Source: Candidatus Niyogibacteria bacterium RIFCSPLOWO2_01_FULL_45_48 (GTDB taxonomy: Bacteria; Patescibacteriota; Minisyncoccia; HO2-45-28). From it: a DNA stretch of 45,635 nucleotides. A program made the translations under genes and the position numbers. This document shows, one piece after another, positions 2,764-39,588 of this stretch. The notes under the pieces were generated by a model that saw only the letters and a list, made by a program, of their open reading frames with translations, was not told the DNA's origin and searched no databases. Position 1 is the stretch's first letter. Every line of letters starts with the position of its first letter. Location: assembly GCA_001819395.1 (NCBI GenBank), contig MHMQ01000033.1:1-45635 (forward strand). Reading direction: 5' to 3'.

Positions 2764-3879
2764 TCAGGAACTCTTCATCGGCATCACCAGATACAAATAG
2801 GAAACATCCCTGGGGTTTTGTATCAAAAGCGGCCGATTCGCGCCGGAAAAACGCAAAATAACTCCGTCTGAATTCACGGGCTCAAGGCCCTCAAGTAAAT
2901 ACCTTTGATTAAAGGATATCTCCAAATTCTCTCCGGTTATTTGCGCCGGAAGATGGCTTGTGTGTTCTCCGAACTCGTTGTCGCTGGTGGTTATTTCGAG
3001 AAGGTTGTCCCCGGAATAAATGCGCATTTTTATTTCTTTTAGGCGTCCCGACAAAACTCCGGCCAATTTTAAATTTTCGATAAGATCTTTTTTAGACAGG
3101 GTGGCTTCAGTGGTAAACGATGATGGTATTATTTGTTCGTAATCAGGAAAACTTCCTTCCGTCAGCCGGGTAAAGTATGAAAAATAAGGATGCGAAACAA
3201 AAAGATGCTGGGCGTCGAAGTTTATTTCGACCTGGTCGTCAAAATTTTCTATTATTTTCATAAAATTCGACGCTGATCTCGCCGGAAAAAGAAAAGACCC
3301 TGTTTTTTCAAAATTTGCTTCGAAAGATTTCTCGGCTAAACGGAAAGAATCCGTGGCCGTTATTTTAAGCGAGCCCTCGGACTTATTCTTACTTCCTCCG
3401 GCCGAAAACAAAATAGCCGATATTTCCGGTTTAATGTCCGAATTCGCCGCGGCGAAAAAAACATTTTTTAAATTAGAAAAAAGTTTCTCTGTTTCCAAAA
3501 CCAGCTTATAACCGTTTTTTATTTTTGGTAATTTAGGAAAATCCTCGTTGTTGTATGTTTTTAAAACTGTAGATGTATTTTTTGTCGTCAGATATAAATT
3601 TCCTTCCTTCGACTCCATTTTTATTTTTTCGTCGTTTATGGACGACAACACCGATATGGCCGGTTTTGACGGAATAACCAACTCCCCCTCTTTTTTAATT
3701 TGAGCGGGTATTTTTGTTTCAAAACCGCTGTATAAGTCGGTCGATCTTATAATTAAATTATTTTTCTCGGCTTTTAAAAACACTCCGGTAAGAATCGGAT
3801 TTGTTTCTGTATGATTTGTATGTCTGTCGGCCAGTTGAAGACATTTTTGTATTTGGTTTTTTACACAGACCAGTTCCAT
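2764..3879 (-). CDS. dnaN: DNA polymerase III beta sliding clamp
   Basis: 371 aa, immediately downstream of dnaA. Clamp-sized three-domain protein with a typical N-terminus (NPILTGVFLKAEKNNLIIRSTDL) and C-terminus (RPLLIQNP..YLVMPM). Confidence 0.9.
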   Translation of the reverse strand: MELVCVKNQIQKCLQLADRHTNHTETNPILTGVFLKAEKNNLIIRSTDLYSGFETKIPAQIKKEGELVIPSKPAISVLSSINDEKIKMESKEGNLYLTTKNTSTVLKTYNNEDFPKLPKIKNGYKLVLETEKLFSNLKNVFFAAANSDIKPEISAILFSAGGSKNKSEGSLKITATDSFRLAEKSFEANFEKTGSFLFPARSASNFMKIIENFDDQVEINFDAQHLFVSHPYFSYFTRLTEGSFPDYEQIIPSSFTTEATLSKKDLIENLKLAGVLSGRLKEIKMRIYSGDNLLEITTSDNEFGEHTSHLPAQITGENLEISFNQRYLLEGLEPVNSDGVILRFSGANRPLLIQNPRDVSYLYLVMPMKSS

Positions 3880-4089
3880 AATATATTTTTATTTAATTTA
3901 AATAACTGTTGAAGTAGATACTCATGTGAATAAGTGGAAAGCACGTTTTAATCTTTATTTACAACAAATTTTAACACGGACTTTTTGTTGTTTTTGTGGA
4001 TAATCAGTGAAAAAAACCATGTAACTTTTGCGCCGGCAGAAAAAAATTTTAATTGTAAACATTTTTTCAACAGGATTTCCTAAAAATAA
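3880..4089. promoter_or_regulatory. dnaA-dnaN intergenic region with DnaA boxes (candidate oriC segment)
   Basis: AT-rich 210 bp. A perfect DnaA box TGTGGATAA (reverse complement of TTATCCACA) lies at 3995-4003, and an 8/9 box TGTGAATAA at 3925-3933. Confidence 0.5.
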
Positions 4090-5451
4090 TCACTGTTTTT
4101 CTTCTTCATATAACTGCGCTCTAATTGTTTTCAATTCTTCTTTAAGCCGATCGTCTTTTTTCAGATCGTTTAATATTTTTGTATAGGCGTGTATGGCTGT
4201 TGTGTGATCGCGGCCGCCAAATTTCTTGCCGATATAAGGAAAAGAGCCGTTAAAATCCTCCCTCATAAGATACATGGCAATCTGTCTGGGTTTAACCACC
4301 TCCTTTCTTCTTGTTTTTTCAAAAAGATTTTTTTCAGGCACTTCGTAAAATTGGGCTATTTTTCTTATTATATGCTGAGAGCTCAGGGTTTTTCTTGGTT
4401 TCTCGTTTTTGATCAGTATTTCTTTGACTTCAGGCAGGCTTAACGGTCTTTTTTTGATTTTGGATCTCGCGATTATTGAATTGAGTGATCCTTCAAGCTC
4501 TCTTATGTTGGACTGAACGCTTGCCGCTATGTGTTCCAACACTTCGGAAGACGGCCTATATTCCTGTTTCTCGGCCGCCTTAGACTGGAGTATCGCGAGT
4601 CTTGTCTCATAGTCCGGTTCGGCTATATCGGCAATCATTCCGCCCTCAAAGCGGGATCTTAATCGGTCTTCTATGTTGGAAATGGACTTGGGCGGGCGGT
4701 CCGAGGAGAATATGATTTGTTTGTTTGCCTGATACAGGGTATTGAAAGTATGGAATATTTCTTCCTGCGTGGACGACCCGCGGCTTGATATAAACTGAAT
4801 ATCGTCGAGTATCATTACGTCATAGGAACGATATTTATCTTTAAAAATCCCTGTTTCGTTATTCCTGATGGCTGAGACCAGCTCATTGGCGAATCTTTCG
4901 GCTGAAATATAAAAGATCTTTTTTTCCGGACGGTCTGTTTTTATTTTGTTTCCTATGGCCTGCATTAAATGAGTCTTGCCCAGTCCCACTCCGCCGTAAA
5001 TAAAAAGCGGGTTATATAAAACCCCGAGGTTGTTTATTACCGATAAAGCCGAAGCGTGGACCAGCTCGTTAAACGTACCCACAATAAAGTTATCAAAAGT
5101 GTATCGTGGGTTGAGATTTGTCTCCCGATCTATATATATCTCCCTAAAGTCCATTTGTTCCTCGGCGTTTTTGGTTTCGGACACCTTTTTCTCTTGCGGA
5201 GCCTCCTTGGACACGACCTTGAACTCGATTGAACGCACTTCGGGTGAACGTAGGCGCAGAAATTTTAAAATATTTTTTTGGTATTTGTCCTCGAGCCACT
5301 CTTTAACGAAAGCTGACGGAGTTCCTACGGTTATTTTTCCTTCTGACTGGTCAGCGACAAAAGTGTTTTGAAACCATGTCGCGAAATTGGCCTTTGAGAC
5401 CGTCAGTTCCAGTTCCCCAAGGATTTCTCTCCAGAGCTCTTCGTTGGTCAT
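4090..5451 (-). CDS. dnaA: chromosomal replication initiator DnaA
   Basis: 453 aa. Walker A GGVGLGKTHL, Walker B ILDDIQF, and a C-terminal DNA-binding domain (VKPRQIAMYL..GGRDHTTAIHAY). Confidence 0.97.
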   Translation of the reverse strand: MTNEELWREILGELELTVSKANFATWFQNTFVADQSEGKITVGTPSAFVKEWLEDKYQKNILKFLRLRSPEVRSIEFKVVSKEAPQEKKVSETKNAEEQMDFREIYIDRETNLNPRYTFDNFIVGTFNELVHASALSVINNLGVLYNPLFIYGGVGLGKTHLMQAIGNKIKTDRPEKKIFYISAERFANELVSAIRNNETGIFKDKYRSYDVMILDDIQFISSRGSSTQEEIFHTFNTLYQANKQIIFSSDRPPKSISNIEDRLRSRFEGGMIADIAEPDYETRLAILQSKAAEKQEYRPSSEVLEHIAASVQSNIRELEGSLNSIIARSKIKKRPLSLPEVKEILIKNEKPRKTLSSQHIIRKIAQFYEVPEKNLFEKTRRKEVVKPRQIAMYLMREDFNGSFPYIGKKFGGRDHTTAIHAYTKILNDLKKDDRLKEELKTIRAQLYEEEKQ

Positions 5452-30970: not shown

Positions 30971-31876
30971 ATGGCGCAGTCGGACAAAAACGATTTTTTA
31001 AGGCAATATTTGGAATATCTGGAAATTGAGAAGGGGCGGAGTTTGAAGACGGTTGAAAATTACGGCCGGTATCTCTCTGTTTTTTTTAATTTTTCAAAAA
31101 TTGCTACGCCCGTGGACATCACCGACGATGTGGTGCGCGATTTTCGGATGTGGCTTAATCGCAAAAACCTCAAGAAGAAAACGCAAAATTATCACCTGAT
31201 TGCGCTTCGCGGATTTTTGAAATATCTGGCGCGTAAAGAAATCCCGTCTTTGGCTGCCGAAAAAATAGAGCTGGCCAAAACGGGCGAGCGGGAAATTGAC
31301 CTGATTTCAGAAGATGATTTGGAGCGACTGCTTTCTGCTCCCGCCAGCAAAGAACCCAAAACTTTGCGTGATAAAGCGATTCTGGAACTTTTGTTTTCAA
31401 CAGGGCTCCGCGTCTCCGAGCTTTGTTCGCTTAACCGCGACTCCGTCAATTTAAAAAAGGGCGAGTTTTCAATTCGCGGGAAAGGAGAAAAAATGCGGGT
31501 TGTGTTTTTGTCCGATGGCGCGAAAATCGCTGTTGAAAATTGGCTTGGCAAACGCGCCGATGTCCACGAAGCTCTTTTTGTCAACTTCAAGCCCGGAAAA
31601 AAAGATAATCTGGACGAAAACGCGCGCCTGACGCCTCGTTCGGTTGAACGCACCATAAAACATTACGCGATTAAGGCCGGAATTTCCAAAAAAGTTACAC
31701 CTCACACCTTGCGTCATTGCTTTGCCACCGACCTTCTTTCGGGCGGAGCGGATTTGCGTTCGGTTCAAATGATGCTTGGGCACGCAAACATTTCAACCAC
31801 TCAAATTTACACCCACATAACCAACCGCCAGTTAAAAGATATCCATAAGGCATTTCATGCGAAAAAAAGAAAATAA
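30971..31876 (+). CDS. XerC/XerD-family tyrosine recombinase
   Basis: 301 aa with an SAM-like N-terminal domain. Catalytic pattern: ..GLRVSEL.., HTLRHCFAT, LGHANISTTQIYTH. Confidence 0.9.
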   Translation: MAQSDKNDFLRQYLEYLEIEKGRSLKTVENYGRYLSVFFNFSKIATPVDITDDVVRDFRMWLNRKNLKKKTQNYHLIALRGFLKYLARKEIPSLAAEKIELAKTGEREIDLISEDDLERLLSAPASKEPKTLRDKAILELLFSTGLRVSELCSLNRDSVNLKKGEFSIRGKGEKMRVVFLSDGAKIAVENWLGKRADVHEALFVNFKPGKKDNLDENARLTPRSVERTIKHYAIKAGISKKVTPHTLRHCFATDLLSGGADLRSVQMMLGHANISTTQIYTHITNRQLKDIHKAFHAKKRK

Positions 31877-33914: not shown

Positions 33915-34142
33915 ATGAATAAACTCATCGGATTAAAAGAGCTTAGGAAAAACGCGGATGTTTACATATCGGAGGTGGAAAAGGGGAAATCCTTTATTGT
34001 AGTTAAGCGTTCTAAGCCGGTATTTAAAATAACGCCGCCCGACGAGGATGATGGGGCGTGGGAAACCGTCGTTAATTTCACCGATTTTTACAAAGACGGA
34101 ATTTCCGCGAAACAGCTTTTAAAAAGAATCGGCTCTTTGTAA
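33915..34142 (+). CDS. Phd/YefM-like type II antitoxin
   Basis: 75 aa (MNKLIGLKELRKNADVYISEVEKGKSFIVVKRSKPVFKI..). The start is moved to ATG 33915. The track start at 33723 would overlap the upstream minus-strand gene. Confidence 0.6.
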   Translation: MNKLIGLKELRKNADVYISEVEKGKSFIVVKRSKPVFKITPPDEDDGAWETVVNFTDFYKDGISAKQLLKRIGSL

Positions 34143-34145
34143 ATA

Positions 34146-34388
34146 ATGAAAAATTTTGAAAGGGAGCTCAAAAAATTTTCTCAAAAAGAAATAAGGAGAA
34201 TTGAATTCTTGCTGCGAAAAATTATAGTTAAAAATTTTAAGGGACTCGACCTGAAAAAACTTAAGGGTCTTAAAAATATTTTTCGTCTGCGAAAAGGCAG
34301 AATCCGCGTTATTTTTAGTTTGGAGGACAAAAAAGAGCCGAGAATTCTCGCGATTGAGCGAAAATCCGATACGACTTATAATTTATAG
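34146..34388 (+). CDS. RelE/ParE-family type II toxin
   Basis: 80 aa, 3 nt after the antitoxin stop. The ..LKGLKNIFRLRKGRIRVIFSLEDK..ILAIERKSD pattern is typical of RelE/ParE toxins. Confidence 0.6.
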   Translation: MKNFERELKKFSQKEIRRIEFLLRKIIVKNFKGLDLKKLKGLKNIFRLRKGRIRVIFSLEDKKEPRILAIERKSDTTYNL

Positions 34389-34399
34389 GGTTATTACAA

Positions 34400-34471
34400 G
34401 TCCCCGTGGTGAAATGGATATCACGACTGCCTTCGAAGCAGTTGTTGGGGGTTCGAATCCCTCCGGGGACG
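34400..34471 (+). tRNA. tRNA-Arg (anticodon TCG)
   Basis: Hand-folded cloverleaf: acceptor GTCCCCG/CGGGGAC, anticodon arm ACTGC-CTTCGAA-GCAGT, T-arm GGGGG-TTCGAAT-CCCTC. No encoded CCA. Confidence 0.85.
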
Positions 34472-34495
34472 CACGAAGACAATTTTACTTGTAGG

Positions 34496-34511
34496 CGAAT
34501 CCCTCCGGGGA
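34496..34511 (+). repeat. 16-nt direct repeat of the tRNA-Arg 3' end (CGAATCCCTCCGGGGA)
   Basis: Identical to 34454-34469 and located 26 nt downstream of it. Confidence 0.85.
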
Positions 34512-36937: not shown

Positions 36938-37156
36938 ATGAGAAACATAATCAACATATCGTTGTCCAAAGAGTTGAATCAGGAGGTGGAAAAAAGGGTT
37001 AAAAAGGGCCACTATTCTTCCAAAAGCGAATATTTTCGAGAACTTATCCGTGAAAAAGTCGAGGAAGACAGGCTGGTTCGCGAGCTTGAGGAGTCGCATA
37101 ATGAGTTGGCTATGGGAAAGGGTAAAATTTTGCGTTCTCTGAAAGACCTTCGGTAG
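36938..37156 (+). CDS. ribbon-helix-helix (CopG/ParD-like) type II antitoxin
   Basis: 72 aa (..INISLSKELNQEVEKRVKKGHYSSKSEYFRELIRE..). It precedes a RelE/ParE-like ORF by 2 nt. Confidence 0.6.
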   Translation: MRNIINISLSKELNQEVEKRVKKGHYSSKSEYFRELIREKVEEDRLVRELEESHNELAMGKGKILRSLKDLR

Positions 37157-37158
37157 TC

Positions 37159-37416
37159 ATGAAGATTTTTTACTCGAGCAAATTTGTTCGAGAATATGAA
37201 CAATTACCCGTAAAGGTTCAGGATGCTGCCGAGAACAGAACGCTGATTTTTAGAAAAAATCTTTTTGATAAAAGATTGCGAACGCACAAACTTTCAGGAA
37301 GAATGAATAGATATTGGTCGTTTTCGGTTGATTATAAATATAGGATTATTTTTGAGTTTGCGTCCGAAAATATTATTTGGTTCCACTCAGTTGGCGACCA
37401 TTCGATTTATCAATGA
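37159..37416 (+). CDS. RelE/ParE-superfamily type II toxin
   Basis: 85 aa (..LRTHKLSGRMNRYWSFSVDYKYRIIFEF..IIWFHSVGDHSIY). Its stop overlaps the cca start (ATGA). Confidence 0.6.
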   Translation: MKIFYSSKFVREYEQLPVKVQDAAENRTLIFRKNLFDKRLRTHKLSGRMNRYWSFSVDYKYRIIFEFASENIIWFHSVGDHSIYQ

Positions 37417-38876
37417 AAATCCCGAAGGAAATTAAAGAGGTTTATGACGAACTGGCGAATGCCGGATACGAGGTGTATCTTGTCGGCGGGTGCGTGCGGG
37501 ACCTGTTGCGCGGAGTTAAGCCGAAGGACTGGGACATAACGACGAACGCGAAGCCGGAAGAGGTTCAAAAAATATTTCCGGACAGTTTTTATGAAAACGA
37601 TTTCGGAACAGTTGGAGTAAAGACCGCCTCCGAAGATCCGACTTTGGCCGTTGTTGAAATAACACCATACCGCGTTGAGGAAAAATATTCCGACAAACGA
37701 CATCCCGACTCCGTGAAATTCGCCGACAAACTTGAGGACGATTTGAAACGACGCGATTTCACGACAAACGCTCTTGCGCTCCAACTTGGACGTGAAACGT
37801 CCAAGTTGGGGGTCGTTGATCTTTTTGATGGTGAAAAAGACCTGAAAAATAAAATTATCCGCGCGGTTGGCAATCCGAAAGAAAGGTTTGAAGAAGATGC
37901 TTTGCGAATAATGCGGGCGGTGAGATTCGCGGCGGAGCTTGGTTTTTCGATTGAAGACAAAACACGAGACGCGCTTGAGGCCAAAAAGGGCCTTCTGGAA
38001 TTTGTCTCAAAAGAAAGGGTCAGAGACGAGCTCATAAAGATTTTTGAAACAAGCCGGCCATCTTTGGGTTTTGAGTTAATGCGTGAACTCGGTATTTTAA
38101 AATACGTTATGCCGGAAGTTGAAGAGGGCTGGATGGTGGGACAAAACAAGCACCACATTTATACCGTCTGGGAACATAACGTGCGCACCATGGATTACGC
38201 AGCCAAAGAAGGCTGGTCTTTGGAACTGAGAATCGCATCCCTCCTTCACGATGTGGCCAAGCCTAGAACCAAGGAAGGCGATGGCCCAGATTCAACTTTT
38301 TACAACCACCAGATGGTCGGCGCGAAAATGGCCGCCCAGATTTTGTCCAGATTGCGTTTTTCTAAAAAAACGATCGAGAAAGTGGTCAAGCTCGTGCGCT
38401 ATCATATGTTTTATTACAACGTCGGCGAGGTGACCGATTCCTCGGTCAGGCGTCTTTTGGCCAAAGTCGGGCCCGATGACATGAACGACCTGATAAACGT
38501 GCGCATAGCAGAGCGTATCGGTTCGGGCGTACCCAAGGCCGAACCCTACAAGCTTCGCCATTTTCGGTTCATGGTTGAAAAGCTCCAACGCGACCCTATT
38601 TCGGTGCGTATGCTAAAACTCAACGGTGACGAGGTGATGAAAATTTGCGAAATTCCGGCCGGGCCTAAAGTCGGCGCGGTTCTGGATGTTTTGCTCGAGG
38701 ATGTGCTTGACGATCCGAAACTTAACGATAAGGATTATCTTTCCGGAAAAGCCAAGGAATTATGCGCGGTGTCGGACTCCGAGTTGTCTAAAATGCGTGA
38801 AGATGCTAAAAAAAAGAAAGTCGGATTTGAGGAGGAAGAGGTTGGAAAGATAAAAAAGAAATATTATGTGAAGTAA
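37413..38876 (+). CDS. cca: CCA-adding enzyme / tRNA nucleotidyltransferase with HD domain
   Basis: The start is moved to ATG 37413 (MKIPKEI..). Motifs include GGCVRDLLRGVKPKDWD and RRDFTTNALA, plus an HD domain (LLHDVAKP). Confidence 0.85.
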   Translation: MKIPKEIKEVYDELANAGYEVYLVGGCVRDLLRGVKPKDWDITTNAKPEEVQKIFPDSFYENDFGTVGVKTASEDPTLAVVEITPYRVEEKYSDKRHPDSVKFADKLEDDLKRRDFTTNALALQLGRETSKLGVVDLFDGEKDLKNKIIRAVGNPKERFEEDALRIMRAVRFAAELGFSIEDKTRDALEAKKGLLEFVSKERVRDELIKIFETSRPSLGFELMRELGILKYVMPEVEEGWMVGQNKHHIYTVWEHNVRTMDYAAKEGWSLELRIASLLHDVAKPRTKEGDGPDSTFYNHQMVGAKMAAQILSRLRFSKKTIEKVVKLVRYHMFYYNVGEVTDSSVRRLLAKVGPDDMNDLINVRIAERIGSGVPKAEPYKLRHFRFMVEKLQRDPISVRMLKLNGDEVMKICEIPAGPKVGAVLDVLLEDVLDDPKLNDKDYLSGKAKELCAVSDSELSKMREDAKKKKVGFEEEEVGKIKKKYYVK

Positions 38877-38900
38877 TTTTCCCCGCCATGGCGGGGCAAG

Positions 38901-38937
38901 CGGGATGCAGTATATCGGCAGTACGTGCGCTTCGGGG
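38901..38937 (+). pseudogene. tRNA-Pro 5'-half fragment
   Basis: CGGGATGCAGTATATCGGCAGTACGTGCGCTTCGGGG matches nt 1-37 of the adjacent tRNA-Pro(CGG) with 2 substitutions, including U8 to C. It then diverges. Confidence 0.75.
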
Positions 38938-38969
38938 AAATTTTTAAAACAAGTTTTTGTGAATCCTGT

Positions 38970-39040
38970 CGGGATGTAGTATACCGGCAGTACGTGCGCT
39001 TCGGGTGCGCAAAGACTGGGTTCGATTCCCAGCATCCCGA
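38970..39040 (+). tRNA. tRNA-Pro (anticodon CGG)
   Basis: Hand-folded: acceptor CGGGATG/CATCCCG, anticodon arm TGCGC-TTCGGGT-GCGCA (G37), T-arm CTGGG-TTCGATT-CCCAG. No encoded CCA. Flanks GAATCCTGT/ACAGGATTC extend the acceptor helix to 16 bp. Confidence 0.85.
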
Positions 39041-39070
39041 CAGGATTCGTAAAACGACAATAAAAATTTC

Positions 39071-39091
39071 CGGACTTCCTGCGGAAGTCCG
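39071..39091. repeat. perfect 9-3-9 hairpin (CGGACTTCC-TGC-GGAAGTCCG)
   Basis: Direct reading. It lies between the intact tRNA-Pro and the duplicated 3' half. Confidence 0.85.
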
Positions 39092-39105
39092 TGGTTCCGA
39101 GGGAG

Positions 39106-39139
39106 GCAAAGACTGGGTTCGATTCCCAGCATCCCGACA
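39106..39139 (+). pseudogene. tRNA-Pro 3'-half fragment (perfect 34-nt repeat of 39009-39042)
   Basis: GCAAAGACTGGGTTCGATTCCCAGCATCCCGACA is identical to the 3' half of the intact gene. It ends at the A of the next gene's ATG. Confidence 0.85.
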
Positions 39140-39588
39140 TGAAAAAATTAAAAATACCCTATTATCGCCAGGAAACGGATTATTTTTGCGGACCGGCCGC
39201 TTTGAAAATGGCTCTGGAATTTTTCGGTAAAAAAGTAAGCCAGAAAAAACTCGCCGGGCTCCTTAAAACAAACGAAAAGCGGGGAACCTTAAGGCGGGAC
39301 ATGATAAAGACAGCAAGAGGGTTCGGCCTTTCGGCCAGGGGATTTTTTGGAAAAAATTTGGACGAAGTTAAAAAATTTTTAAACACCGGCAATATAGCAA
39401 TAGTCATTTTTGTTGAGCCGTCTTCGGAAGAAGACCATTACTCGGTTCTTGCTGGAGTTGGCCGCGGTTGTGTTGTTTTAAACGATCCCTTGTCAGGAAA
39501 AAATTTTGAGATAAAAGAAAAAGATTTTATTGCCAGATGGAATAAATGGAACAGATGGTTTATGGTGATTGGCCGGCGCGCTCTATAG
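39139..39588 (+). CDS. stand-alone peptidase C39-like (papain-fold Cys protease) domain protein
   Basis: The start is moved to ATG 39139 (MKKLKIPYYRQETDYFCGPAALKMAL..). The catalytic Cys context is FCGPAA and the His context is EDHYSVL. The track start at 39091 runs through the tRNA fragment. Confidence 0.6.
   Translation: MKKLKIPYYRQETDYFCGPAALKMALEFFGKKVSQKKLAGLLKTNEKRGTLRRDMIKTARGFGLSARGFFGKNLDEVKKFLNTGNIAIVIFVEPSSEEDHYSVLAGVGRGCVVLNDPLSGKNFEIKEKDFIARWNKWNRWFMVIGRRAL

Follow-up and report, generated by a model that had tools for sequence, protein, structure and literature searches.

Group I introns with homing endonuclease genes occupy the anticodon loops of bacterial tRNAs, and introns and inteins are, to our knowledge, the two known ways in which homing-type elements occupy essential genes. 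The leader-trailer stems of bacterial rRNA operons are substrates of RNase III; we know of no description of such processing stems for tRNAs. SegB, a free-standing phage GIY-YIG homing endonuclease encoded in the T-even tRNA gene cluster, cuts tRNA-containing DNA and drives both the preferential inheritance and the recombination-dependent duplication of the tRNA-plus-segB segment, the latter at microhomology at the tRNA 5' end (PMC13096335). Partial tRNA copies are also found flanking integrated elements (attL/attR), for instance in archaea, where a 5' piece of tRNA-Thr lies next to a recombinase element (PMC3293823; bioRxiv 10.1101/2022.07.05.498093).

In the window (the whole stretch of 45,635 nucleotides analysed here), which belongs to a patescibacterium close to Cand. 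Niyogibacteria, a complete tRNA-Pro(CGG) gene is enclosed by a 5' and a 3' fragment of the same gene. A literature search recovered no published accounts of nested tRNA genes in Patescibacteria. The locus was compared with genomes and loci of related ultra-small bacteria, designated by L-numbers (e.g., L007, L141), and its layout is probably the footprint of a tRNA gene-replacement element, not an intron or a viral scar. To the reading in which a nuclease-driven tRNA replacement cassette left the window locus as a relic without an ORF, we assign a probability of roughly 0.5. As in the SegB system, a GIY-YIG gene is physically located among tRNA genes (here at tRNA-Lys and tRNA-Gln loci), but the host is a cellular bacterium and not a phage, the protein is a bare catalytic domain of ~85 aa closest to UPF0213/SLX1, and instead of a tandem array the tRNA is nested inside its own broken copy, with no nuclease gene in the window.

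The nested tRNA-Pro locus

The following parts were delimited:

37413..38876, + strand: cca gene (CCA-adding enzyme; Pfam PolyA_pol, PolyA_pol_RNAbd and HD), upstream synteny anchor
38881..38896: perfect 16-nt palindrome CCCCGCCATGGCGGGG within the ancestral leader, 5 nt upstream of the 5' dead copy (sequence and inverted-repeat search)
38901..38937, + strand: dead 5' copy of the tRNA-Pro gene, comprising its nt 1-36 and one additional G
38938..38969, + strand: spacer X, contributing the 5' strands of both helices formed with the trailer
38970..39040, + strand: intact tRNA-Pro(CGG) (ARAGORN and Rfam), presumably functional
39040..39071, + strand: native trailer, including the clamp's 3' strand (39040-39054) and that of the distal helix (39061-39071)
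39071..39091, + strand: hairpin C, 9-bp stem and 3-nt loop (inverted-repeat search)
39092..39105, + strand: motif A (TGGTTCCGAGGGAG), a conserved mini-hairpin directly 5' of the 3' dead copy
39106..39139, + strand: dead 3' copy of tRNA-Pro, spanning canonical positions 41-73 followed by CA (perfect 34-nt repeat)
39139..39588, + strand: C39-family peptidase gene (ORF; Pfam Peptidase_C39)

A 301-nt region covering the locus was 100% identical in five independent metagenome assemblies and identical too in the 99%-identical strain L143, which excludes an assembly artefact. The inner gene was recognized as tRNA-Pro(CGG) by ARAGORN (38970-39041) and as a tRNA by Rfam (38970-39040, 55.7 bits against a threshold of 29), in agreement with the first-pass annotation of this DNA. 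It has the C1-G72 pair, A73, U8, G37 and the TTCGATT T-loop of bacterial tRNA-Pro, and does not differ at any base from the single-position gene of L141 (100% identity).

The two fragments described in the annotation were recovered as well. The 5' one (38901-38936) agrees with the intact gene at 34 of the latter's first 36 nt, the two substitutions being T8 to C at 38908 (U8C) and a D-loop C to T at 38915, and the 3' one (39106-39139) is a perfect 34-nt copy of 39009-39042, where 100 shuffles gave an expectation of 0 matches. The peptidase gene begins, as had been noticed, at the end of the 3' fragment, since the first base of its ATG (39139-39141) is also the last base of the fragment. A longer, decayed 3' copy starting from the D loop was hinted at by a resemblance in the window, L141 and L146 only, which did not reach significance against shuffles (p ~0.18, 0.02 and > 0.19, respectively).

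The gene order in relatives is cca, tRNA-Pro(CGG), tRNA-Ala(CGC). In L140 the same leader hairpin is followed by a single tRNA-Pro, and in L007 a single tRNA-Pro ends 4 nt before the same peptidase ATG; the dead copies thus occupy the ancestral tRNA-Pro site, with the 5' fragment beginning at the ancestral position 25 nt past the cca stop. As judged from their sequences, the flanking pieces are non-functional remains of a tRNA-Pro copy at this cca-peptidase position, and the inner copy is the predicted working gene.

The suggestion that the fragments together make up almost a whole tRNA failed on closer alignment: positions 38-40 are absent from the joined halves, the substitute bases cannot close the anticodon stem, of which 3 bp remain, and U8 is replaced by C, so the halves cannot rebuild a tRNA. 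This bears directly on the reading of the outer halves as a functional split or intron-containing tRNA from whose RNA the 168-nt insert is removed, which we regard as barely credible. The break does fall at 37/38, where tRNA introns canonically sit; all 239 nt of the region form one nested rod in the minimum-free-energy fold (z = -7.4); the outer acceptor strands are still complementary; and motif A can pair with the anticodon loop. By inspection, however, rejoining fails in any register, no bulge-helix-bulge is present (the 5' junction lies within a continuous helix in the fold), and the outer anticodon in the window duplicates the inner one. The outer copies (shells) of other loci are damaged further, by an inserted 38-nt palindrome and the loss of 4 nt in the 5' fragment of L011, by interruptions of the D arm and T loop in L146 and L128, by mismatches in the D-stem and T-stem in L110, and by a further insertion/mismatch in L021. 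Searches of Rfam at gathering and permissive thresholds in the window and 13 related loci returned tRNAs and rRNA only, with no ribozyme or intron match even at E up to 10. The locus resembles group I introns in that an essential tRNA gene is invaded at the anticodon loop, with a nuclease association and a patchy distribution; it differs from them by having no ribozyme or splicing, the rescue coming from a spare gene in the insert and not from removal of the insert.

Helices around the inner tRNA

The 9-bp inverted repeats GAATCCTGT/ACAGGATTC that had been reported to flank the inner tRNA are real and unique within the window, and they are longer than was thought: the repeat grows to 15 pairs between 38955-38969 and 39040-39054 (13 Watson-Crick and 2 G.U), which together with the acceptor stem gives a helix of 22 bp, referred to as the clamp. 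A second helix, missed in the first-pass annotation, is formed by 38936-38946, which pairs perfectly with 39061-39071 over 11 bp. Spacer X essentially repeats the trailer's first 32 nt in reverse complement, and being fully accounted for in this way it shows no visible ORF remnant; it holds no ORF, and BLAST found no repeat of it elsewhere in the window. The trailer ACAGGATTCGTAAAA...TAAAAATT is present in L141 and L010, and in L146 it is the trailer of the outer (resident) gene, running to the peptidase ATG.

The acceptor-stem extension score was ≤ 4 in 301 of 311 contexts and 7 in L015, while scores ≥ 11 were found only at 8 loci with partial tRNA copies (9 contexts), where the total helix measures 20-23 bp. 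Across these loci both sides have changed in 14 of the 16 clamp pairs (covariation), 92% of cells are paired vs. 33-56% in slid controls (the controls being computed over the whole 37-pair structure), and the mismatches comprise 7 G.U, 0 A.C and 2 others, a G.U bias that points to selection at the RNA level. The clamp is probably maintained through selection on the transcript. In fold simulations it lifts the predicted probability of the acceptor stem from ~0.5 to 0.996, with or without the flanking halves, and no specific counteraction of these halves by the clamp was seen; it may serve to keep the inner tRNA's own halves together or act as a double-strand processing stem. Like the rRNA leader-trailer stems, it is a helix of at least ~20 bp made by sequences flanking a structural RNA, conserved in structure and not in sequence; unlike them, it directly continues the acceptor stem, and cleavage by RNase III is hypothetical. 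The clamp would represent a new covarying RNA element attached to a tRNA.

Inverted repeats around a gene could also mark a mini-transposon that carried a tRNA into its paralogue, as the annotation had considered. Repeats of 13-16 bp surround the inner tRNA at nested loci, and L089 is a true insertion, with relatives that have its shell allele as one intact gene. Nevertheless, the flank repeats are wholly unrelated between loci, which leaves no common transposase site, they abut the tRNA instead of marking the ends of the inserted segment, neither solo nor extra copies of them occur in the window, a clear target-site duplication is absent, and the G.U-biased mismatches indicate RNA selection. 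We therefore consider a mini-transposon very unlikely. As to the recurrence that the annotation had asked for, inverted flanks were found at nested loci in other genomes; their sequences differ, and the window has no solo copies.

Alleles and spread among relatives

The inner and outer genes are different alleles at two loci. In L146 the shell is CGGGATG/CATCCCG, followed by the trailer ACAGGATTCGTAAAA and the peptidase, and the inner gene is CGGGGCG/CGCCCCG; in L089 the shell is CGGGCTG/CAGCCCG and the inner gene CGGGGTG/CACCCCG. L120 and L113, which have parts of the L089 flanks in common, carry the L089 shell allele as one intact gene. These allele differences demonstrate that a whole tRNA gene can sit inside another. 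The window locus is a nested gene that arose at the DNA level. Because one allele makes up both its inner and its outer copies, a local duplication could also have produced this locus. L141 lacks a 5' half but has everything from the intact gene through the same 64-nt spacer to the 3' half, and the 5' and 3' sides are thus separable: either the window locus was built by two separate events or L141 deleted its 5' half. Of the view that an older tRNA-Pro was split by an insert, the split at the ancestral position (L140, L007) and the insertion of foreign alleles (L089, L146) are borne out, while the single event it implied is complicated by L141. No tandem intact tRNA-Pro(CGG) genes were present at the locus among the relatives examined, against the proposed decayed tandem duplication; simple tandem duplication with decay was rejected for this reason and for the unequal spacings of the tRNA copies (69 and 97 nt).

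Partial tRNA copies within 350 nt were detected in 37 of 304 distinct tRNA contexts (~12%) and in 0 of 370 shuffled controls; for tRNA-Pro(CGG) the count was 17 of 86 contexts. The nested layout is found again in related genomes, at genes for tRNA-Pro, Lys, Ala, Arg and Gln, and its distribution on the cca tree is patchy. The tRNA, spacer and 3' half are 97.6% identical between the window and L141 (the 64-nt spacer alone at 61 of 64 positions), vs. 73% for the cca DNA, and spacer X is identical to that of L011 at 31 of 32 positions (97%), vs. 78% for cca. The distance from the intact gene to the 3' half is alike in many lineages (43-64 nt). Motif A, as TGGYTYCG-N(1-2)-RGGAG, occurs 4 times in ~1 Mb of loci, each time beside a tRNA-Pro 3' fragment, and was found in L141 and L146; both it and the nested geometry recur in distant lineages. 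The patchy distribution on the host tree, the foreign inner alleles and a non-coding block that is 95-98% identical despite 73-78% in cca argue for spread, and on this sequence evidence the layout appears to be a recurrent, horizontally spreading structure at Paceibacteria tRNA genes.

The same data weigh on a local replication or repair error that needs no mobile element, in which fold-back and template switching duplicated the 5' part, the 3' part and the inverted trailer, and gene conversion kept the 3' copy identical. Such an error would agree with the near-complete derivation of spacer X from the inverted trailer, the perfect 9-bp palindrome of hairpin C, the shared allele of the inner and outer copies in the window and the separable 3' and 5' additions (L141), and a double template switch could yield the leader and 5' half together with the inverted trailer and tRNA in a single event. 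It accounts poorly for foreign inner alleles within resident shells (L146, L089), for the conservation of the non-coding block above that of cca and its patchiness on the host tree, for the recurrence of geometry and motif A in distant lineages, and for the nuclease ORFs at the equivalent position of Lys and Gln loci. We judge this explanation unlikely for the window.

The annotation had also suggested att scars. In this scenario, tyrosine-integrase elements targeted tRNA-Pro around its anticodon loop, left a partial duplicate of the gene and were subsequently emptied of their internal sequence. The typical attL/attR arrangement does consist of a complete gene and, displaced downstream of it, a 3' half that starts close to the anticodon arm; many loci have a 3' half only or a 3'-end copy (positions 55-72) 180-320 nt downstream, and motif A looks by inspection like a degenerate anticodon loop, as an attR core would. 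The locus shares with att-flanked elements the truncated direct-repeat copies by an intact gene, the break in or near the anticodon arm and the character of the copies as non-functional by-products. Against this origin, only 64 nt without an ORF separate the intact gene from the 3' half, with no integrase or element body; a 5' half is present, although elements that restore the 3' end do not make 5' halves, and fragments of both kinds surround the intact gene within 170 nt. The entire inner gene of L146 and of L089, its 5' half included, is foreign, and a covarying clamp is present, neither of which is a feature of att-flanked elements. The junction cores are not identical (left CTTCGGGG/AAATTT, right TTCCGAGGGAG/GCAAAG), their resemblance being degenerate only, and neither motif A nor the tRNA anticodon arm had a match when used to scan viral contigs. 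Among the 20 large ORFs of the window, Pfam revealed no mobile-element genes other than a syntenic Xer-type recombinase, the sole integrase, ~7 kb upstream (30971-31876). Att scars are thus decidedly unlikely.

BLAST against all sequence compared found no extra copies of spacer X, of the 64-nt spacer or of the L010 tail, and no distant 3' halves were located kilobases downstream of 5'-half-only loci in the sequence searched. Hairpin C, whose 9-3-9 form at 39071-39091 was present as annotated, is terminator-like only when read on the minus strand, and scans for promoters and terminators on the plus strand of the locus yielded nothing useful. A hairpin of different sequence takes its position in L021, L083, L146, L110, L048 and L128.

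A link to GIY-YIG nucleases

Fuller loci contain a stand-alone GIY-YIG ORF of ~85 aa between the 5' dead copy and the intact tRNA, namely at tRNA-Lys CTT (L124, L096/L106), tRNA-Gln (L085) and tRNA-Lys TTT (L148, L153). The first-pass annotation had overlooked these genes at equivalent loci. Their Pfam GIY-YIG matches reach E = 1.5e-15 and 3.4e-19, and the proteins, whose closest families are UPF0213 and SLX1, consist of the catalytic domain alone and score under the NCBIfam cut-off for intron endonucleases. All 9 GIY-YIG matches in ~1 Mb are located < 600 nt from a same-strand tRNA gene, 8 of them within ~300 nt. In L124 the GIY-YIG ORF is accompanied by a 13-bp clamp, the native trailer supplying its 3' strand. 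Dead copies with the palindrome TCCGCCAGCTGGCGGA were seen as well. No GIY-YIG ORF was detected in the 45 kb of the window (tblastn, E < 1e-3), and a nuclease ORF between the 5' half and the intact gene was absent from every tRNA-Pro locus sampled. The putative tie of the nuclease to the tRNA-Pro loci rests on shared architecture and taxon. Two features of a homing cassette, i.e., presence/absence polymorphism between close relatives and an insert more conserved than its flanks, were found; a nuclease gene in or next to the insert was seen at the Lys and Gln loci and not in the window.

By analogy, the GIY-YIG nuclease would cut tRNA genes, and we infer that the window locus descends from a nuclease-bearing element. 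In the replacement-cassette reading, a tRNA-gene-directed nuclease would cut the resident tRNA gene, and repair would copy in a cassette with its own complete tRNA, which would substitute for a splicing intron. The broken resident gene would then persist as a shell, and the window copy may have lost its nuclease gene or never had one, making it either an ORF-less relic or a cassette mobilised in trans. Upstream of the inner gene, the leader is the native trailer inverted, and the two prolong the acceptor stem into the 22-bp clamp. The wider proposal is put forward tentatively, as possible though on balance doubtful: an undescribed selfish GIY-YIG cassette would invade essential Patescibacteria tRNA genes, the host would be spared by the carried replacement tRNA and not by splicing, successive invasions would give nested shells, the 20-23-bp clamp would be selected for processing or folding, and the window locus would be a nuclease-less member.

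If true, a spare-copy cassette would add a third route into essential genes, the tRNA genes of reduced bacteria would turn over by an undescribed, nuclease-linked route of replacement from inside, and the patchiness of tRNA alleles relative to the host tree would be explained. At the frequency of partial copies seen in the sampled tRNA contexts, gene-finder miscalls and assembly breaks are possible. In a separate observation, two small ORFs upstream of tRNA-Arg appear, from their sequences, to resemble a toxin-antitoxin pair and not nucleases.

The nested tRNA-Pro locus and its dead outer copy

All elements listed in the first-pass annotation were found at the locus using ARAGORN, Rfam and repeat comparison, and the 9-bp inverted repeats reported at the intact gene proved to be the core of a longer leader-trailer helix (hereafter the clamp):

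38901–38936: 5' fragment, the first 36 nt of the intact gene with two substitutions
38936–38946 with 39061–39071: second helix, 11 bp, perfect, closing the remainder of the spacer
38955–38969 with 39040–39054: clamp, 15 pairs
38970–39041 (ARAGORN) or 38970–39040 (Rfam, 55.7 bits): intact tRNA-Pro(CGG)
39106–39139: 3' fragment, an exact copy of the last 34 nt of the intact gene

The clamp prolongs the acceptor stem from 7 to 22 bp, and the 239-nt region is predicted to fold into a single nested rod (−108.7 kcal/mol, z = −7.4). An assembly artefact is excluded, as the locus is identical at every base in five independent assemblies plus one 99% strain variant. Read on the minus strand, the hairpin at 39071–39091 together with GAAATTTTTA (39071–39100) resembles an intrinsic terminator, and the equivalent hairpin at the related locus L021 carries a comparable T-rich tail on that strand.

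Readings of the outer halves as intron-split exons or as a functional split tRNA were rejected, because the fragments, if joined, lack positions 38–40 and leave an anticodon stem of just 3 bp, U8 is replaced by C in the 5' fragment, and the outer copies (shells) in other genomes compared carry insertions or stem mismatches. In addition, Rfam gave no ribozyme match at this or related loci, and the predicted fold contains no bulge-helix-bulge motif, since the 5' junction is embedded in an uninterrupted helix.

Relatives and recurrence of the nested layout

Judged by the neighbouring cca gene (CCA-adding enzyme), the window belongs to Patescibacteria, nearest to Candidatus Niyogibacteria, and the order cca, tRNA-Pro(CGG), tRNA-Ala(CGC) is found throughout the group. 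Loci from relatives, with cca protein identity to the window, were arranged as follows:

L140 (79%): one tRNA-Pro, with the same leader hairpin upstream as the window's 5' fragment
L007 (79%): one tRNA-Pro, 4 nt upstream of the start codon (ATG) of the same C39 peptidase gene
L011 (81%): same 5' fragment and same spacer between it and the intact gene (31/32), the fragment disrupted by insertion of a 38-nt palindrome and loss of 4 nt
L141 (complete genome CP066691.1; 76%): an identical copy of the intact gene immediately after cca, then the same 64-nt spacer (61/64) and 3' half; 5' half absent
L146 (79%): shell of the window's allele with trailer ACAGGATTCGTAAAA and the peptidase gene, with palindromes interrupting its D arm and T loop; inner gene of another allele (CGGGGCG)

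The layout of the single-gene relatives, such as the leader of L140 and the peptidase spacing of L007, indicates that both fragments of the window lie at their ancestral positions. The assemblies L010 (1415–1561) and L141 (4053–4200) have 100% identical cca proteins and diverge completely from nt 14 of the tRNA-Pro trailer onwards: in place of the spacer and 3' half of L141, L010 has unrelated DNA with a TTGACA/TATAAT-like promoter; this could be a strain-level polymorphism or a chimeric contig. The C39 peptidase start codon (39139–39141) overlaps the end of the window's 3' fragment, with no Shine-Dalgarno sequence visible, and in relatives the gene begins 4–25 nt past the tRNA or tRNA fragment (L007:2572–2583, L146:3157–3169). 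Speculatively, RNase Z-type cleavage after the discriminator would give a nearly leaderless peptidase mRNA.

Metagenomes scanned with a segment of the tRNA as query yielded 52 loci, and each tRNA in all collected loci was compared with its own flanks, a partial copy being scored if it lay within 350 nt. Such copies occurred in 37 of 304 distinct tRNA contexts (17/86 for tRNA-Pro(CGG)) and in none of 370 shuffled-sequence queries. Full nests were present at tRNA-Pro, Lys and Ala genes, and Arg and Gln genes had one-sided partial copies. The window's own tRNA-Arg(TCG) (34400–34472) has a 15–16-nt copy of its 3' end (GAATCCCTCCGGGGA) 19 nt downstream (region 34455–34503), a small version of the same theme that is also a terminator-like hairpin before a T run.

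At L089, the outer halves (CGGGCTG/CAGCCCG) correspond to the single intact gene of its relatives L120 and L113, with which it has parts of its flanking sequence in common, and the inner gene is a foreign allele (CGGGGTG/CACCCCG), which shows that true insertion does occur. The window sequence alone is compatible with local fold-back and template-switch duplication, because a single allele makes up both its inner and its outer copy and the spacer 38938–38969 is an inverted copy of the trailer; we consider this unlikely, and it is the strongest rival to the cassette reading set out below. The nested state is scattered over the cca protein tree, and the non-coding spacer is 95% identical between the window and L141 (adjacent coding DNA 73%) and 97% between the window and L011 (78%), so recent horizontal spread fits better than vertical descent of neutral DNA.

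The clamp and the nuclease link

The extension of the acceptor stem into the flanks was scored in 311 tRNA contexts. Scores were ≤ 4 in 301 and 7 in one, and values ≥ 11 were reached solely at eight loci (nine contexts), every one with partial tRNA copies and a total helix of 20–23 bp. The clamp covaries: both sides have changed in 14 of 16 pairs in an alignment of seven tRNA-Pro loci, and 92% of clamp cells are paired, compared with 33–56%, calculated for the whole structure, in controls with the partner slid by 1–3 columns. Mismatches comprised seven G.U, no A.C and two others; the G.U/A.C split among transitions alone (one-sided probability ~0.008) only hints at selection acting on the sense transcript, because the scoring slightly favours G.U. 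As the 3' strand is the native trailer in the window, L146 and L124, the leader is the derived inverted copy. In folding simulations the clamp raised the stability predicted for the inner tRNA's acceptor stem from ~0.5 to 0.996, independently of the flanking halves; the clamp could just as plausibly be a stem for processing by a double-strand-specific RNase as a stabiliser of the acceptor stem.

At tRNA-Lys(CTT) loci (L124, L096/L106), the 5' dead copy is separated from the intact tRNA by an 86–88-aa ORF encoding a GIY-YIG catalytic domain (Pfam E = 1.5e−15 and 3.4e−19), and L124 additionally has a 13-bp clamp. The ORF is likewise placed at tRNA-Gln (L085) and, at loci reached via protein homologues, at tRNA-Lys(TTT) (L148–L152, L153–L155). 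All nine GIY-YIG matches in ~1 Mb of compared loci were on the same strand as a tRNA gene within 600 nt, eight of them within ~300 nt. The ORF product matches UPF0213 proteins and SLX1 best, and I-TevI more weakly. This placement is reminiscent of SegB, a phage GIY-YIG enzyme encoded among tRNA genes, which cleaves tRNA-containing DNA and causes a tRNA-plus-segB segment to be duplicated by a recombination-dependent route (PMC13096335).

The best-supported account, to which we give about an even chance (roughly 0.5), is that the window locus is a relic of a nuclease-linked tRNA replacement cassette. The comparisons above show the anatomy of the locus, its recurrence, the decay of the shells, the foreign inner alleles, the covariation of the clamp and the association of nuclease genes with tRNA genes. 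Beyond these, the account supposes that the nuclease would cut tRNA genes, that the tRNA-Pro cassettes would descend from nuclease-bearing ones, and that the clamp would stabilise the inner tRNA or help to process it. The window contains no nuclease ORF, nor was one found inside the nest at any tRNA-Pro locus sampled, and both observations count against this account. Integrase att-site scars and a terminal-inverted-repeat transposon, both raised in the first-pass annotation, were rejected as the main explanation along with an intron, as each misses a defining feature. The components are of known kinds, namely homing-type nucleases located close to tRNA genes and the partial gene copies that mobile DNA leaves behind; their combination and the cellular host are new, and literature searches turned up no account of tRNA clamps or nested tRNA genes from Patescibacteria.

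Palindromes, inserts and neighbouring genes

In dead tRNA-Lys copies of unrelated genomes (L124, L096/L106, L148, L153), a perfect 16-nt palindrome, TCCGCCAGCTGGCGGA (variants e.g., TCCGCCGCAGGCGGA), stands in place of positions 24–31, and it also occurs within inserts at tRNA-Pro (L120) and tRNA-Ala (L049). A GC-rich palindromic element of ~37 nt (CCYGCCYGCAACGCTTYGCGTAGCRATGC...; L011:5521–5558, L146:3093–3129) is inserted in two dead tRNA-Pro copies, at the D loop in one and at the T loop in the other, and looks like a small mobile hairpin element targeting tRNA loops. Inserts of 120–215 nt that separate an intact tRNA from a second copy of its 3'-terminal ~18–22 nt (L023:6170–6286, L033:6194–6311, L120, L088, L126, L148:1560–1640) have in common a piece of the T arm in inverted orientation (GGAATCGAAC) and the motif GGGGTCGGGRAAAC-GGGAG; they matched no Rfam family.

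The window begins near the chromosomal replication origin, as judged from dnaN and dnaA at 2764–5451, ~30–40 kb away from the tRNA cluster. Two small two-gene pairs, immediately 5' of tRNA-Arg (33915–34388) and cca (36938–37416), look by sequence like toxin-antitoxin modules, the former with an antitoxin-like and a RelE/ParE-like ORF and the latter with an RHH protein and a ParE-like ORF.
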